Shown here in pieces: positions 2,636 through 30,128 of a stretch of DNA of 64,000 nt (position 1 is its first letter; each line of letters begins with the position of its first letter). A program made the translations under genes and the position numbers. The stretch lies in NCBI GenBank assembly GCA_002430735.1, contig DJCV01000011.1:19612-83611 (forward strand), written 5' to 3'. Source of the stretch: Candidatus Woesebacteria bacterium UBA5941. GTDB taxonomy: Bacteria > Patescibacteriota > Microgenomatia > UBA8517. Below the pieces are notes generated by a model, which saw only the letters and a program-made list of their open reading frames with translations, was not told the origin of the DNA and made no database searches.

Positions 2636-4030
2636 TTACTTTTTATAATCCATCTGCATACTAAATGGGATACTGGCTTCAGTTAACAAACTTGAAAGCG
2701 GGACTGTGACTTTAGAAAATTCAGGCGCATCTTCAAGTACTTGTTTCAGTTTTAAAAGATCTGCTCGTGATTCAGCGATACCGCTAATACTTACCTTACC
2801 TGTTTCGATATTTACATCATAAGCGAGAATTGTTGTTGTCGGGATTCGTTTTTGTTCAATACTATTTACAGGAACTTGCGGGTACGAGATTGCTTTTATA
2901 ACTGCGTCTAATTTATTCGTCGCGGCGTTCACCTTCGTGATTTCGCTCGATACTGCCGTTAAAGAAGGTTGCCCTGATACGACTTCCTTCGGCGTATTTT
3001 TCTTCGACTGCAATGCAAGTGCTTCTTGAGACAGCAATGTGTATGTCCCAAGAGCCGCAAGGAAGCACATAAACACAACGACAGACCATACAAGCGTTAA
3101 CGTCCAAAGCCTGAAATCTCTCATCTGATTTTTGTAGTGAACAACCCACGCAGGAGGAAGCAAGTTGATCGAGTATGCATTTGAAGGCTCTTCTGGATTA
3201 ATCGATTGTTGAGAGATCGCAATAATATAGTGCTGTATATCACTTTCGCTTAGCCCTGTTACTGAGAGTTTTAAACCTTCAATGGGAAGATTCAATTTAA
3301 CTTGTATTGCGTTCAAAAACTCTTTGGTGAGGCCATTTCCACAAACAGCAACCTTTGCAATGTCATTTTTATTAAAGCGTGCGAGAATCTGTGCGAGATT
3401 CGCAACAACAAGCTGGTCATCTGCATTATTAATAACACTCGTGGCGAGCACTTTTTTCCCCGAGATAACGGTTGCAACAATCGTTCCTTTAGATCGATAT
3501 ACGACGAGCTTCCCTTCGGCATTTCCTTCCGCAATCCGCTCCAAACAAAGTGACGTCGTCTCCACAAATACCGGAAGCAATCCGGCAGCATCAACGGCAC
3601 CCACGAATCCAGAGAGGTCACCTACTTCAATTGCAACGAGTAACACTTCGTAAGAGTCACTTTTCTCGCCAATAATTTTCCAATCAAGCACCATTTCCGA
3701 TCCTTCATGAGGCAAGAATTCTCTTGATTGCCAGCGGACTGCTTCATCAAGTTCAGATAATGAAACACGAGGAAGTACGAGTGTTTTCATAAAAGTAGAA
3801 AACTCAGGGAGAATTAAGCCTATTGCTTTTTCTTTCAACCGCTCCTTTTTCCAAATCATTTTCAAAAGGCCAGCAAACTCTCCCGGCTTTTCTACTTTTC
3901 CTTGAGAGACGATGCCGTCAGGTATTTCGTAAGTAGCGGCTTTGACGACATGCTTTCCCTCCTTAGAAGTCTTTACAATCTTTAGCTTATGATTACTAAC
4001 TGATACAGAAACAAATGATCGACGATACAT
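2636..4030 (-). CDS. PilM-PilN fusion protein (actin-like ATPase PilM fused to bitopic PilN)
   Basis: The N-terminal region is actin/FtsA-like (KIVKTSKEG...VLLVAIEVGDLSGFVGAVDAAGLLPV). It continues into a TM helix (WTLTLVWSVVVFMCFLAALGTY) and a PilN-like periplasmic tail. Confidence 0.7.
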   Translation of the reverse strand: MYRRSFVSVSVSNHKLKIVKTSKEGKHVVKAATYEIPDGIVSQGKVEKPGEFAGLLKMIWKKERLKEKAIGLILPEFSTFMKTLVLPRVSLSELDEAVRWQSREFLPHEGSEMVLDWKIIGEKSDSYEVLLVAIEVGDLSGFVGAVDAAGLLPVFVETTSLCLERIAEGNAEGKLVVYRSKGTIVATVISGKKVLATSVINNADDQLVVANLAQILARFNKNDIAKVAVCGNGLTKEFLNAIQVKLNLPIEGLKLSVTGLSESDIQHYIIAISQQSINPEEPSNAYSINLLPPAWVVHYKNQMRDFRLWTLTLVWSVVVFMCFLAALGTYTLLSQEALALQSKKNTPKEVVSGQPSLTAVSSEITKVNAATNKLDAVIKAISYPQVPVNSIEQKRIPTTTILAYDVNIETGKVSISGIAESRADLLKLKQVLEDAPEFSKVTVPLSSLLTEASIPFSMQMDYKK

Positions 4031-6070: not shown

Positions 6071-7443
6071 AACGAAAATTAATACAAGGAACTATTACTC
6101 CAGCCCTCATTGTTATAACCGGTGCATTTTTAGTAGTCATTTACGGGCTATTGTTTCTGCTTGTGTTGCAGGTCGACTTTAGCAATAGAAATTTAGCGAG
6201 TGAGAGTGCGCTTTCGCTTGCCGAAGCAGGAATTAATTATTACCGTTGGCATTTAGCACATGATCCGGCAGACTTTACAGATGCAACAACAAGCGCAGCA
6301 CCCTATGTTCATACGGTTACCGATCCGTCAGGAGGTGTCCTCGGCACATATAGCCTGACAATCACACCTCCTGCGAGTGGATCTGCAATTGTGACAATTA
6401 AATCAGTTGGAGCGTCATCGCTGTACTCAAAAGTAACCAGAACAATTACTGCCCAATATGGACGCCAATCATTGGCTAAGTATTCATTTTTACAAAACGC
6501 TTCAGCCTGGTATGGCTCTGGAATTACTGTCAACGGTGATATCCACAGTAATACCGGAATTCGAATGGATGGAACGAACTTGTCGAAAGTAACAAGTGCA
6601 AATACAACTTACACCTGTGGCAGTGAAACGGGGTGTAGCCCTTCCCAAAGTAGACCTGGAGTGTGGGGTTCAGGTGGAGATCAAACTCTCTGGCAATACC
6701 CGGTACCTTCTGTTGACTTTAATGCCATATCGTTTGATTTTGCTCAAATGAAAACGGCAGCGATTGCAAACGGACAGTGGCTTGGTGCGTCAGGTGCCGC
6801 TGGTTACCATTTAATTTTCAATTCCAACGGAACATATACCATTCGCCGGGTTACTGGAACGAACTACTATGACGCATATGATGCTGATAATGGATGTCAA
6901 AGACAGTATCAACGAATTACCAGCGAGACACAGATCGCAACAGGTTCTGTCTCTCAAAAACCAATCTTATTCTTCGAAGACACGTTGTGGGTGGAAGGAA
7001 CAATAAATGGAAAGGCGACAGTAGTGGCAGCAAAATTCCCCGTGCAAACAAGTAACACAAATATTTGGATTCCTACAAATCTTAATTATTTAGCATACGA
7101 CGGAAATCACAGACTCGGACTGATCGCTCAAACTGATATTTACTTTGCACGCGACATTCCCACAAACTTTCGAGTTGACGGTGCACTCATGGCACAGAAA
7201 GGGAAAATTATTAGGCATGGATATATTAGTAGCTGTGGAAGCACAACCAATGCAGTCAGAAACAGCTTGACGATTAACGGTGCGATTATTTCGTATAACA
7301 AGTCCTATTGGAATTTTAATAATCCTGTTGTTTCTGGTTTCACAACACGAACGATTAACTATGACACGAGATTACTCTATGAGCCTCCTCCATACTTTCC
7401 AGTTACTGGTGACTATGAATTCATAAGCTGGAAAGAAGAATAA
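6067..7443 (+). CDS. PilX-like pilus assembly/minor pilin protein
   Basis: N-terminal TM helix followed by ...SLAEAGINYY, resembling the PilX_N AEAG motif. It is third in the minor-pilin operon. Confidence 0.5.
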   Translation: MKRKLIQGTITPALIVITGAFLVVIYGLLFLLVLQVDFSNRNLASESALSLAEAGINYYRWHLAHDPADFTDATTSAAPYVHTVTDPSGGVLGTYSLTITPPASGSAIVTIKSVGASSLYSKVTRTITAQYGRQSLAKYSFLQNASAWYGSGITVNGDIHSNTGIRMDGTNLSKVTSANTTYTCGSETGCSPSQSRPGVWGSGGDQTLWQYPVPSVDFNAISFDFAQMKTAAIANGQWLGASGAAGYHLIFNSNGTYTIRRVTGTNYYDAYDADNGCQRQYQRITSETQIATGSVSQKPILFFEDTLWVEGTINGKATVVAAKFPVQTSNTNIWIPTNLNYLAYDGNHRLGLIAQTDIYFARDIPTNFRVDGALMAQKGKIIRHGYISSCGSTTNAVRNSLTINGAIISYNKSYWNFNNPVVSGFTTRTINYDTRLLYEPPPYFPVTGDYEFISWKEE

Positions 7444-27814: not shown

Positions 27815-28423
27815 TTACCGACCGTCTCTTTTTGGTGCGTTATCTAAACTTTTCCACAAGTATCGAGAAGCATACGTTCGATACGGACTCCATTTCTCAA
27901 CAATTAATTGCATGGATGCAATGTCATCACGATCAATGCCATAGAGCTTTGCAATAGCACTTCTAAGTCCCAAGTCTCCATAAGAGAATACATCCTCTCT
28001 CCCTAAGCTAAACATCAGAATCATTTCAGCGGTCCATGGTCCGATTCCCTTCACTTTTGTAAGGGTGTCGATCACCTCTTTATCAGAAAGTGTTGGTAAC
28101 AATTCGAGATCTACTTCACGATCTGTAATCATTTGTGCGAGTCCTTTTATATATTTCACTTTTGAGTATGAAACACCCACTCCACGAATTTCCTCATCAG
28201 TTAATTGCAATACATGTTTTGGAGTAATTTTTTTCCTACCAAAAAGTAGCTTAAAACGATTCCAAATAGTGTCTGCTGCTTTCGTCGAGAGCTGTTGACC
28301 AACAATACTGCTCACAATATCTGAAAAAAGATCTGTTGTTGGGATGGGTGCTGGGAGTACATCGTAATCGTTCATTACTGCTGCCAGGATTTTGTCCTTT
28401 TGTAAATGTGAACGATAGTTCAT
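27815..28423 (-). CDS. HhH-GPD DNA glycosylase (AlkA-like 3-methyladenine DNA glycosylase II)
   Basis: Helix-hairpin-helix VKGIGPWTAEMIL, followed by a catalytic Asp region. Confidence 0.75.
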   Translation of the reverse strand: MNYRSHLQKDKILAAVMNDYDVLPAPIPTTDLFSDIVSSIVGQQLSTKAADTIWNRFKLLFGRKKITPKHVLQLTDEEIRGVGVSYSKVKYIKGLAQMITDREVDLELLPTLSDKEVIDTLTKVKGIGPWTAEMILMFSLGREDVFSYGDLGLRSAIAKLYGIDRDDIASMQLIVEKWSPYRTYASRYLWKSLDNAPKRDGR

Positions 28424-28839
28424 TTAGAGAGAAGATGTGGAACAATTGAAACTACGAGTGCGGTTACCGTTCCACAAAGAACAGCACCCCAGATAATGTC
28501 TATAAACGCAATTTTGACGCTCCAATTATTGAGCGTAGCAAGGTTCGTTAAATCATAGACCGCATATGTTAATGCTCCAAAGAGAGCACCCCAAAGAAAT
28601 GCTTCAGTCATAGGCTTGCCCATCACTTTCGGAATGACAAATAAACAAAGCGCAAGAGGTATCACTATATATACTAAAATGGCTGGCGCCCACAGTGGCG
28701 ATAACGTTCCCTGCGCATTCTTTCTCATCAAATGCCCAATTTCCTGCAGATATAATTTATTTGCAATAAATCCGAGCCAAACCCCATCAATGATGAGAGT
28801 AATAATGGTTGTTACAGCAAAAACTACAATGCCATTCAT
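28420..28839 (-). CDS. hypothetical polytopic membrane protein (DUF2177-like)
   Basis: Four TM helices. Confidence 0.4.
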   Translation of the reverse strand: MNGIVVFAVTTIITLIIDGVWLGFIANKLYLQEIGHLMRKNAQGTLSPLWAPAILVYIVIPLALCLFVIPKVMGKPMTEAFLWGALFGALTYAVYDLTNLATLNNWSVKIAFIDIIWGAVLCGTVTALVVSIVPHLLSK

Positions 28840-28934
28840 ACTGCATTATACCAACTATTTCATTGCTTTTTTGAATATTTATTTATCCCGTACACACGAC
28901 ACTTATAGTTCACTCCAGACTCACTATTACACAC

Positions 28935-28963
28935 TTGAATTTGTTGTAAATTCCTTTTACATT
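28935..28963 (+). promoter_or_regulatory. candidate sigma70-like promoter TTGAAT-17-TACATT
   Basis: ttgaat at 28935-28940, a 17-nt spacer, and tacatt at 28958-28963. It lies upstream of the SD gaggtg and the ATG at 28988. Confidence 0.35.
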
Positions 28964-28987
28964 TAATAAAGAAATGAGGTGAGTTGA

Positions 28988-29113
28988 ATGCCTGCCAAAA
29001 AACGAAAACCAGCTACTAAGAAAAAGGTTGTTAAAAAAGCCGTTAAAAAGGTGAACAAACGAACGGTCAAAAGAACCACCAAGAAAAAAGCTACTAAGAA
29101 AAAGAAAAAGTAA
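28988..29113 (+). CDS. 41-aa lysine-rich highly basic protein (histone H1/Hc1-like tail composition), absent from the ORF track
   Basis: atg at 28988 to taa at 29111 translates to MPAKKRKPATKKKVVKKAVKKVNKRTVKRTTKKKATKKKKK. SD gaggtg lies 11 nt upstream, a candidate promoter upstream of that, and a strong terminator immediately downstream. Confidence 0.55.
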   Translation: MPAKKRKPATKKKVVKKAVKKVNKRTVKRTTKKKATKKKKK

Positions 29114-29131
29114 TGGTTTTTTATAAAGAAA

Positions 29132-29160
29132 GAGAGCGCTGTACGTAAGCGCTCTTTTTC
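29132..29160 (+). terminator. rho-independent terminator (possibly bidirectional)
   Basis: 8-bp stem gagagcgc (29132-29139) / gcgctctt (29149-29156) with a 9-nt loop, followed by ttttt. Confidence 0.65.
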
Positions 29161-29195: not shown

Positions 29196-30128
29196 TTATC
29201 CTCGCTTTTGAAAGCGTTTGTTTAGCAAGTAGAGAATGAGAAGAACTGGCACCCAAACCACTGCATAAACTGCAAACCAAATACCCATGCTGCCTAGAGC
29301 TCTCAAATGGGTAATCAACGATCTTATTGCAAGCTTAAAGATAACCTGTGGCCTAAAAGTCTCACTCGGTGCATACGGAAGTGCAATTTCATCTGTTGAT
29401 AAATAAATCGTAATTTTTGCAAGCTTTGCATTTTCTTCTAGTGATTGTTGCCTTCCTTTTAATGCATCAATTTGAGACTGAATACTAATTAGCTCTCTCG
29501 TTATATTTGTAAGGTCCGAAATAACTGTTGCTTGAGAGAGAATATCTTCCATTGCAGCCTTTGTCTTTTCCAACGTCTCGATACGTGCTTCAACATCTAC
29601 ATACTGATCAGTTACATCTGTTCCCACCAAGTTCTCAGAGACAACTTTAATACTCCAACCGCGCAAAGTGTCGAGTGTTGATTCCAATTTATCACTGGGA
29701 ATACGAATAGTAATGGTACCCGTTGGAGCATCCTGAGGATTATTTGTCTCTGCATTCACCATATATCCACCATTGGCGACAGCGTGATCAATAACCTTTT
29801 TTCGTGTTTCAACCACATTTTCTACGAGCAAAGAAAGGTAGCTGTTCTGGATCACTAACCGATCGGTTATTTGTGGGGTTGGTGCATAGCTATCTGGAGC
29901 AGGGAAACCGATCGAGCCAACTGCTGAGGCTTTCATATCCATATCAGTCGTACCGTATGGCATAGATTCGACAGTCATTGAAGGGCTCACCTGTCTATTC
30001 AAAGTAGCACTTTGCATTGGCATAATAGTTACACCTAAAAAGTAGCGAACTAGGAAATATGCAACAAACAGAAGTAGTACGGTACTTAATTTATGAGTTT
30101 TGATCCAATCAAGTAAACGAGTGACCAC
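29196..30128 (-). CDS. DUF4349-like membrane-anchored protein
   Basis: N-terminal TM helix, a central coiled-coil, and a C-terminal TM helix. This arrangement is typical of DUF4349. Confidence 0.55.
   Translation of the reverse strand: MVTRLLDWIKTHKLSTVLLLFVAYFLVRYFLGVTIMPMQSATLNRQVSPSMTVESMPYGTTDMDMKASAVGSIGFPAPDSYAPTPQITDRLVIQNSYLSLLVENVVETRKKVIDHAVANGGYMVNAETNNPQDAPTGTITIRIPSDKLESTLDTLRGWSIKVVSENLVGTDVTDQYVDVEARIETLEKTKAAMEDILSQATVISDLTNITRELISIQSQIDALKGRQQSLEENAKLAKITIYLSTDEIALPYAPSETFRPQVIFKLAIRSLITHLRALGSMGIWFAVYAVVWVPVLLILYLLNKRFQKRG

Follow-up and report, generated by a model that had tools for sequence, protein, structure and literature searches.

Does a very short open reading frame (ORF) that encodes little besides lysine specify a real protein, and if so, what could such a protein do? 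The ORF in question lies at 28988-29113 on the plus strand of a 64,000-nucleotide (64-kb) stretch of contig DJCV01000011.1 from Candidatus Woesebacteria bacterium UBA5941, a member of the candidate phyla radiation (CPR). We refer to this whole stretch, which has a GC content of ~42%, as the window. An earlier note, made by reading the letters, had proposed that the ORF is a genuine small gene with expression signals. We found that it is very probably a real translated gene and that three relatives keep it, together with its signals, at the same locus. The reading of its product that we favor, tentatively, is a polycation that binds nucleic acid, most likely chromosomal DNA.

The ORF has exactly the position given in the earlier note. 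Its ATG is the first start codon in frame, with none earlier, and the 41-residue product contains 20 lysines, 3 arginines, 5 valines, 5 threonines, 4 alanines, 2 prolines and 1 asparagine. There are no acidic residues (D or E), no histidines and no aromatic residues. Lysine and arginine (K:R = 20:3) make up 56% of the protein, in keeping with the claim of more than half; the net charge is +23, the isoelectric point is ~12 and the mass is 4.8 kDa. The DNA from 28988 to 29113 is not a simple tandem repeat. The sole array in it is 2.5 copies of a 6-nucleotide unit, AAGAAA, at the 3' end, and a simple-repeat artifact was rejected on that ground. The ORF and the elements around it are as follows.

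28935-28940, plus strand: -35 hexamer TTGAAT, read in the sequence and kept in the window and in relatives L085, L087 and L290 (as TTGAAA in L290).
28958-28966, plus strand: conserved block TACATTTAA, identical at four loci, containing the -10 element TACATT (28958-28963), 17 nucleotides after the -35 hexamer.
28973-28982, plus strand: Shine-Dalgarno region AATGAGGTGA, with the core GAGGTG (28976-28981) 6 nucleotides before the ATG; identical in four orthologues.
28988-29113, plus strand: coding sequence of the 41-residue polybasic protein MPAKKRKPATKKKVVKKAVKKVNKRTVKRTTKKKATKKKKK, 41 codons plus TAA, present in public gene calls and in orthologues.
29128-29160, both strands: bidirectional intrinsic terminator with core AGAGCGCT/AGCGCTCT, a 13-bp stem and a 7-nucleotide loop, with an A-tract on one side and a T-tract on the other.

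The promoter (TTGAAT-17-TACATT) and the Shine-Dalgarno core are where the earlier note had placed them. The promoter agrees with the consensus at only 8 of 12 positions, which explains why a consensus scanner missed it. AATGAGGTGA has one exact copy only in the window. The terminator has a GC-rich core stem of 8 bp (29133-29140 paired with 29148-29155, loop GTACGTA) that extends to 13 bp, and its folding energy is -21.2 kcal/mol (z = -3.4 relative to shuffled sequences). The scanner had listed it on the minus strand. It lies 20 nucleotides past the stop codon of the small ORF and 41 nucleotides past that of DUF4349, the convergent gene ending at 29196, and is therefore a shared bidirectional terminator. 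Thus, the 8-bp-stem terminator of the earlier note is real, but it does not belong to the small gene alone. Both neighbors, DUF2177 (28420-28839) and DUF4349 (29196-30128), are on the minus strand, opposite to the small gene, as had been pointed out. Read together, these elements would constitute a single-gene transcription unit made up of a promoter, a ~17-nucleotide 5' untranslated region with a strong ribosome-binding site, the 41-codon ORF and the terminator.

The ORF had been called unannotated. This is correct for a list of ORFs of at least 60 residues, but the 41-residue gene is called in the public Joint Genome Institute (JGI) annotation of two identical metagenome contigs (samples 3300005677 and 3300013289), which are base-for-base identical to 10 kb around the ORF.

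We traced relatives through contigs that encode homologues of the DUF4349 protein. Three of these share the gene order of the window: SecA and DUF4349 are followed by the small ORF, which is on the opposite strand, and by DUF2177/HhH-GPD/RsmB genes. Each has an orthologue of the small gene.

L085, 5063-5176, minus strand: 37-residue orthologue MPAKKKKIVKKAVKKVVKKAKKTVKKAAKKTSAKKRK.
L087, 6654-6767, minus strand: 37-residue orthologue MPAKKRKAVKKTVKKVVKKAKKAVRKTAKKKTAKKRK.
L290, 8715-8822, minus strand: 35-residue orthologue MPAKKKKTVKKAVKKVMKKKTVKKAAKKKTAKKRK.

SecA of the three relatives is 80-81% identical to that of the window, and the flanking proteins are 57-66% identical. Identity between the orthologous small proteins is 62-73%, so the small protein is about as conserved as its neighbors. 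The N-terminus MPAKK is conserved along with the ribosome-binding site, the ATG and the frame, and the window peptide apparently has one extra PAKKRK/PATKKK unit compared to its orthologues. Upstream, TACATTTAA, AATGAGGTGA and ATGCC are kept at the four loci while the intervening sequence diverges. The -35 hexamer reads TTGAAT in the window, L085 and L087, and (AC)TTGAA is invariant in all four. Downstream, the terminator hairpin is kept at 4 of 4 loci, and compensatory double changes occur in 3 of the 13 pairs of its consensus fold. The ratio of nonsynonymous to synonymous divergence (dN/dS) between L085 and L087 is 0.117/0.504 (~0.23).

According to the earlier note, frame-disrupting indels in relatives would have spoken against a gene. 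We found none. All indels among the four orthologues are multiples of 3, and start, ribosome-binding site, promoter and terminator are retained, so the proposal of a small gene with real expression signals stands. These comparisons show the gene to be under purifying selection, and what selection appears to preserve is charge density and repeat character rather than exact sequence or length. In L087, the public gene call (6654-6950, minus strand) over-extends the 37-residue ORF to 98 residues, starting from an upstream TTG and running through the gene's own promoter.

Codon choice bears on the same question. AAA and AAG alternate among the lysine codons of the window ORF, and its longest run of A is 6. 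A run that short has p ~0.045 given the synonymous codon usage of the window and p = 0.058 when the ORF's own lysine codons are permuted. Over 19 related ORFs, the combined p for avoidance of A-runs is 1e-6. Such avoidance fits selection on translation, against slippage on poly(A).

We also considered that there is no functional protein, and that the ORF is a by-product of an A-rich spacer or a small RNA, or that a hydrophobic ORF on the antisense strand is the real gene. Purine-rich DNA opens both strands, and F/L-rich antisense ORFs of 39-80 residues are indeed found in the window (28963-29082, minus strand) and in L085. However, such ORFs arise automatically wherever sense DNA is purine-rich, and those seen here start at non-conserved TTG codons that lack a ribosome-binding site and are shifted between genomes. 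A type I toxin or antisense hydrophobic gene was rejected for these reasons. No Rfam family matched the region: searches at the gathering cut-off and at E<=1 gave chance-level scores of 15-17 bits only. The conservation of the sense ORF described above, from its ribosome-binding site and MPAKK start to its in-frame indels and dN/dS, also speaks against this alternative, as do similar ORFs in contigs of 60-70% GC, in which A-rich DNA is not a background feature.

The absence of the protein from databases could be taken to favor a non-functional ORF. The window peptide had no phmmer match among 5.8 billion clusters or among 1.84 billion representatives. However, an exact-sequence cluster look-up indicated that the peptides are absent from this 15-billion-protein collection, and low-complexity correction removes what score there is. 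The empty searches are therefore uninformative. Taking both sides into account, we regard a non-functional ORF as very improbable.

What could a protein of this composition do? The product can hardly do anything but bind polyanions, and its sequence suggests that it is probably a non-specific binder of nucleic acid or of another polyanion. Basic residues recur every ~3.6-4 residues, with a peak of spectral power at 90-100 degrees per residue in the window, L085 and L087, and the charge repeat leaves a narrow stripe of V/A/T. AlphaFold2, given the single sequence, predicted one helix spanning residues 9-40 with a mean predicted local distance difference test (pLDDT) score of 89.5. We take the predicted helix to indicate helical propensity only and not to be evidence of a fold.

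We propose that the product is a 4.8-kDa polycation (+23) in which units of about four residues each combine two lysines with two small residues (V/A/T). The peptide would be disordered when free. Contact with a polyanion would neutralize its charge and allow it to fold into the predicted amphipathic helix, and the helix would attach to nucleic acid irrespective of its sequence, with chromosomal DNA as the most likely target. The bound peptide might then act as a counter-ion and compaction factor, in the manner of the C-terminal tail of histone H1 or the lysine-rich repeats of chlamydial Hc2. By analogy to those proteins this is the reading we favor, although it may well turn out to be wrong; that DNA or the nucleoid is the main target is plausible on the same analogy and no more certain.

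The analogy has clear limits. The C-terminal domain of histone H1 and the H1-like tails of some HU proteins (mycobacterial HupB/MDP1 and Deinococcus HU) are rich in lysine, with A, P, T and V and with motifs of the 'PAKK' type. They lack structure in the free state, turn helical on DNA and serve mainly to neutralize charge. These tails are joined to a folded DNA-binding domain, whereas the window peptide is tail-like throughout and its gene has a promoter and terminator of its own.

Hc2 has repeats of K/R plus A/V/T/P, no acidic residues and a variable length, and it binds both DNA and RNA non-specifically (PMC2848022). The window peptide resembles Hc2 (hctB) and Hc2-like proteins such as Bordetella BpH1 in having short repeats that combine two basic residues with A/V/T/P and in lacking acidic residues. 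Hc2 orthologues differ in length by in-frame gain and loss of repeats; here, length variation was seen in other synteny groups of the wider class of ORFs described below. In contrast, Hc2 has 165-237 residues with pentamers arranged in 36-residue higher-order repeats, and the window protein and its orthologues have 35-41 residues in units of ~4. Charge density also differs (56% for the window peptide and about 40% for Hc2).

Similarity in composition did not extend to family membership. Neither the window peptide nor its 37-residue orthologues matched Hc2 models (Pfam PF07382; NCBIfam NF038052 and NF038053) at E<=0.1-10. Longer members of the class scored 12-15.6 bits where the cut-off is 40, and at most 10.8 bits where the cut-offs are 80-135. 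The window peptide did not match Hc1 (Pfam PF07432) either: it lacks the N-terminal dimerization domain, and the whole protein corresponds to the Lys-rich part. More generally, neither the window peptide nor the orthologues had a match in Pfam, NCBIfam or the PDB. The earlier note had likened the product to H1 tails, Hc1/Hc2 and AlgP. The likeness in composition holds for H1 tails and Hc2, but we found no kinship with the Hc1, Hc2 or AlgP families.

The main alternative is a tiny ribosomal or ribosome-associated protein comparable to bS22, eL41 or bL37, that is, a basic helix buried in a pocket of rRNA and missed by annotation because of its size. For bS22 itself, this is the 16S h2/h27/h44/h45 pocket. 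bS22 is 30-33 residues long and helical; in Borrelia it is 61% K/R and unannotated, and the authors predict more such cases (PMC10618245). The proteins of Flavobacterium and Borrelia begin MP.G(K/R)KRK (PMC10618245 supplement). The window protein, with its strong expression signals, resembles bS22 (which is analogous to eL41 and mS38) in being tiny, about 60% K/R, helical (by prediction here), prone to being left unannotated, and in its MP start. In addition, ribosomal proteins of CPR bacteria, for example uS19, can carry Ala/Lys-rich extensions (PMC9297842).

Other properties do not fit a ribosomal protein of this kind. R and H are abundant in bS22, which is near-invariant across Borrelia, with one substitution (PMC10618245). 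In contrast, the window protein has far more K than R and no His, aromatic or Met contacts. Its orthologues, at 35-41 residues, are 62-73% identical where SecA is 80% identical, and in sister groups lengths are up to two-fold apart.

Direct sequence comparisons were negative as well. The window peptide did not match the NCBIfam model NF047430 (ribo_bS22), on which the mycobacterial control, bS22 of M. smegmatis, scored 62.6 bits. It retrieved no PDB chain at E<=10, although a bS22 query retrieved chains of bS22 and mS38. When it was compared to the bS22 proteins of Flavobacterium johnsoniae and Borrelia burgdorferi (MP.G+KRK...THK+KKR..NRHKKK), hhalign aligned 3 columns (probability 1%) and BLASTP gave E = 11, and the alignment was confined to 'MPx'. 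Membership in bS22 was therefore rejected. No separate bS22-like ORF was found in the window, a result of little weight given that these 64 kb belong to a contig of ~942 kb. We also observed that NF047430 fails on the experimentally assigned bS22 proteins of F. johnsoniae and B. burgdorferi, and these are invisible to routine annotation. Because no curated model recognizes bS22 of the Bacteroidetes/Spirochaete type, a sequence test against that type has low power.

That low power, together with the size, basicity, helicity and strong expression signals of the window protein, makes a ribosomal role a serious alternative, but on balance we think it unlikely. We prefer a nucleic-acid-binding polycation because of the excess of K over R with A/V/T/P/N as the only other residues, the absence of His and aromatic residues, the repeats, the moderate conservation and the length variation in the class. 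These are traits of Hc2 (PMC2848022), not of a protein held in a fixed rRNA pocket.

The polyanion need not be a nucleic acid. The product might organize polyphosphate granules, or it might be a membrane-active or host-directed peptide of an episymbiont. Its extreme positive charge and amphipathic repeat are compatible with both, and CPR bacteria live attached to hosts. However, there is no signal peptide and no export partner nearby, and the non-polar face consists of V/A/T only, too weak for a typical membrane-active peptide. The earlier note's suggestion of a membrane-associated polycation is not borne out for the same reasons. The likeness to polyphosphate-associated proteins comes from AlgP of Pseudomonas, a lysine-rich, low-complexity, histone-H1-like polycation that is reported to space polyphosphate granules (PMC9239181). 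AlgP itself is large and contains a long KPAA array. The window peptide has two prolines, no KPAA repeats, no AlgP-like N-terminal domain and no profile match, and no polyphosphate genes are adjacent to it in any of the loci examined. We consider these targets improbable.

Protamines offer a further comparison. They are arginine-rich, eukaryotic, minimal DNA-condensing peptides. The window peptide is like them in being very small and nearly all basic, with polyanion binding as the sole plausible activity. It is unlike them in being lysine-rich and prokaryotic, and condensation by it is only proposed.

The peptide might instead act in cis and control a downstream gene, either as a leader or by stalling ribosomes, in response to lysine, Lys-tRNA or the status of translation. 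Lysine accounts for 49% of the codons, poly-lysine and poly(A) tracts perturb ribosomes, and some 15-residue members of the class lie inside operons on high-GC contigs. However, a strong terminator follows the ORF by ~20 nucleotides and is itself followed by a convergent gene, so there is no co-oriented gene to regulate. This arrangement is kept in L085, L087 and L290, and codon choice avoids long A-runs instead of creating them. An amino-acid-sensing leader or attenuator was rejected on the basis of the terminator and the convergent gene, and we give a cis-acting peptide of any kind almost no credence.

Several points weigh against a DNA-binding counter-ion. DNA, rRNA and other polyanions all fit the data alike as the target, and in Pfam, NCBIfam and the PDB there was no detectable homology to any DNA-binding family. 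AlphaFold, when run on single sequences, tends to call Lys/Ala/Val-rich peptides helical. There was no functional theme among the 65 proteins that flank members of the wider class, as judged by neighbor-gene enrichment. Finally, the locus is rearranged in several close relatives (L083, L084, L086, L088-L090 and the Woesebacteria-type loci L288 and L289), and the 4-8 kb examined in each contained no polybasic ORF. Either the gene moves about within genomes or cells can do without it. A scan of metagenomes with the DUF4349 protein confirmed no locus.

We found that polybasic micro-ORFs are not confined to this locus. Using a DNA pattern in which a ribosome-binding site precedes codons for MPAKK(K/R/..)K, we scanned metagenome contigs and found at least 119 matching stretches. 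Among the matches listed, at least 41 (36 distinct peptides) are polybasic ORFs with at least 50% K/R up to the stop codon; they encode 13-116 residues and lie on contigs of 24-70% GC. A terminator, which we defined for this analysis as a hairpin plus a T-run within 70 nucleotides, follows 23 of 40 polybasic ORFs compared to 8 of 69 other matches to the pattern (Fisher p = 6e-7), again among the matches listed. The N-terminus of these peptides is fixed by the search pattern, and some of the peptides are duplicates.

The identical pattern had 78 matches in viral contigs, of which only 1, a marginal case, is a polybasic ORF (p = 2e-9). Thus, the pattern by itself does not generate polybasic ORFs and the class is cellular; a phage origin was rejected on this basis. 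The matches in viral contigs (L223, L228, L229, L233, L240 and others) and in L093 belong to other families, none of them purely polybasic. They include an 89-residue protein with MKKKG(Y/F)AKGG repeats and a family of 52-64 residues with 'VWPSAYASG' or 'YPSAYANGW'.

Five more synteny groups were found in which a polybasic ORF lies beside an orthologous neighbor (43-82% identity). The polybasic ORFs encode 38-73, 41-63, 67-82, 13 and 15 residues, respectively, with up to two-fold differences in length between orthologues. Genes flanking members of the class include archaeal markers (Cdc6/Orc1, CDP-archaeol synthase and a Tyw1-like enzyme of wyosine formation; L114, L127, L168 and L131) and bacterial markers (YkuD, WhiB and sigma-70; L118, L140, L174 and L094), indicating that the class is present in both domains. 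It may be convergent rather than homologous, and its very short members may be something else.

Lys-rich, low-complexity binders of nucleic acid are already known. Our literature searches, on the sequence motif, on lysine-rich small proteins in CPR bacteria and DPANN archaea, and on nucleoid proteins of CPR bacteria, found no description of a tail-only form of 35-41 residues with a promoter and terminator of its own, conservation within a CPR lineage, and bacterial and archaeal counterparts. It is possible, though we would not bet on it, that the ORFs represent an unrecognized, widespread set of prokaryotic 'protamine-like' microproteins (MPAKK, 13-116 residues, >50% K/R) in CPR bacteria, other bacteria of 24-70% GC and archaea. 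These might form a counter-ion and compaction system of the nucleoid, or they might be new lineage-specific ribosomal components, lodged in rRNA pockets like those of bS22 and eL41 within the reduced ribosomes that ultra-small cells possess.

Such a class would have been overlooked because its members are absent from the large protein collections that we searched and match no curated family. The blind spot is one of annotation: peptides of this kind gain no HMMER score and are sometimes over-extended by gene callers. The polybasic micro-ORFs came to light only by way of synteny and DNA patterns, and one restrictive pattern yielded dozens from both prokaryotic domains. Ultra-small CPR bacteria and DPANN archaea fit a genome and ribosomes into tiny cells, and the ways in which they neutralize and organize the charge of so much nucleic acid have hardly been studied. 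A conserved, apparently well-expressed gene for what is predicted to be nothing but a polylysine helix is a candidate, and one that can be synthesized, for organizing that charge. The product might just as well be a ribosomal component that has been missed.

Some members of the class differ from the window gene in ways that can be described individually. L114 (700-741, plus strand) and L127 (2172-2213, minus strand) have identical 13-residue ORFs, MPAKKKKAAKKKR, each with a small hairpin and a T-run, on contigs with a GC fraction of ~0.30. Each ORF is ~460-470 nucleotides from a Cdc6/Orc1 gene; the two Cdc6/Orc1 proteins are 82% identical, and the contigs are archaeal. This position may be near a replication origin.

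A 15-residue ORF, MPAKKKKAAKKGKKK or a version ending in ...AKKK, is found on three contigs of 64-69% GC: L161 (796-843, plus strand), L100 (1843-1890, plus strand) and L130 (803-850, minus strand). It is wedged, with 4-15 nucleotides between genes, between a conserved 110-residue ORF of unknown function and a CAP-domain gene. Such a position places it within an operon, unlike the stand-alone ORFs, and it may represent an element of another kind.

In two sets of relatives, a conserved protein without a Pfam match is convergent to the polybasic micro-ORF. One is ~205 residues long (L104, L108, L156, L168 and L183) and the other ~430 (L118, L140, L147, L153 and L178); relatives are 43-78% identical. 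The group with the ~205-residue protein is archaeal, because it adjoins CDP-archaeol synthase on L168.

L008, from a metagenome-assembled genome of Sungiibacteriota, has a 21-residue ORF (3540-3605, minus strand), MAAKRKKAAAKKTKKTTKRRS, followed by a clean hairpin and T-run. It shares neither synteny nor the N-terminus with the window gene. Polybasic micro-ORFs therefore reach beyond the MPAKK pattern.

Finally, several observations concern the neighbors of the small gene in the window. In a scan of species genomes, SecA of the window is at most 60% identical to that of any species representative, and most of the best hits are to metagenome-assembled genomes of Patescibacteria. Among homologues of the DUF4349 protein, those with names are from Woesebacteria, Roizmanbacteria and Gottesmanbacteria (~50-53% identity). 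These matches point to a CPR bacterium of the Microgenomates type. The start of the DUF4349 gene (29196-30128, minus strand) differs between two public calls on identical DNA (L001 and L002), giving 273 and 310 residues, and small genes downstream of it are also called differently. On the other side of the small gene, a block, ACACGAC(AC), is kept in an otherwise divergent spacer at 28893-28901 of the window, at ~5262-5270 of L085 and at ~6975-6985 of L087. The spacer separates the small gene from the DUF2177/HhH-GPD operon, which is transcribed divergently, and the block may be a promoter or operator of that operon.

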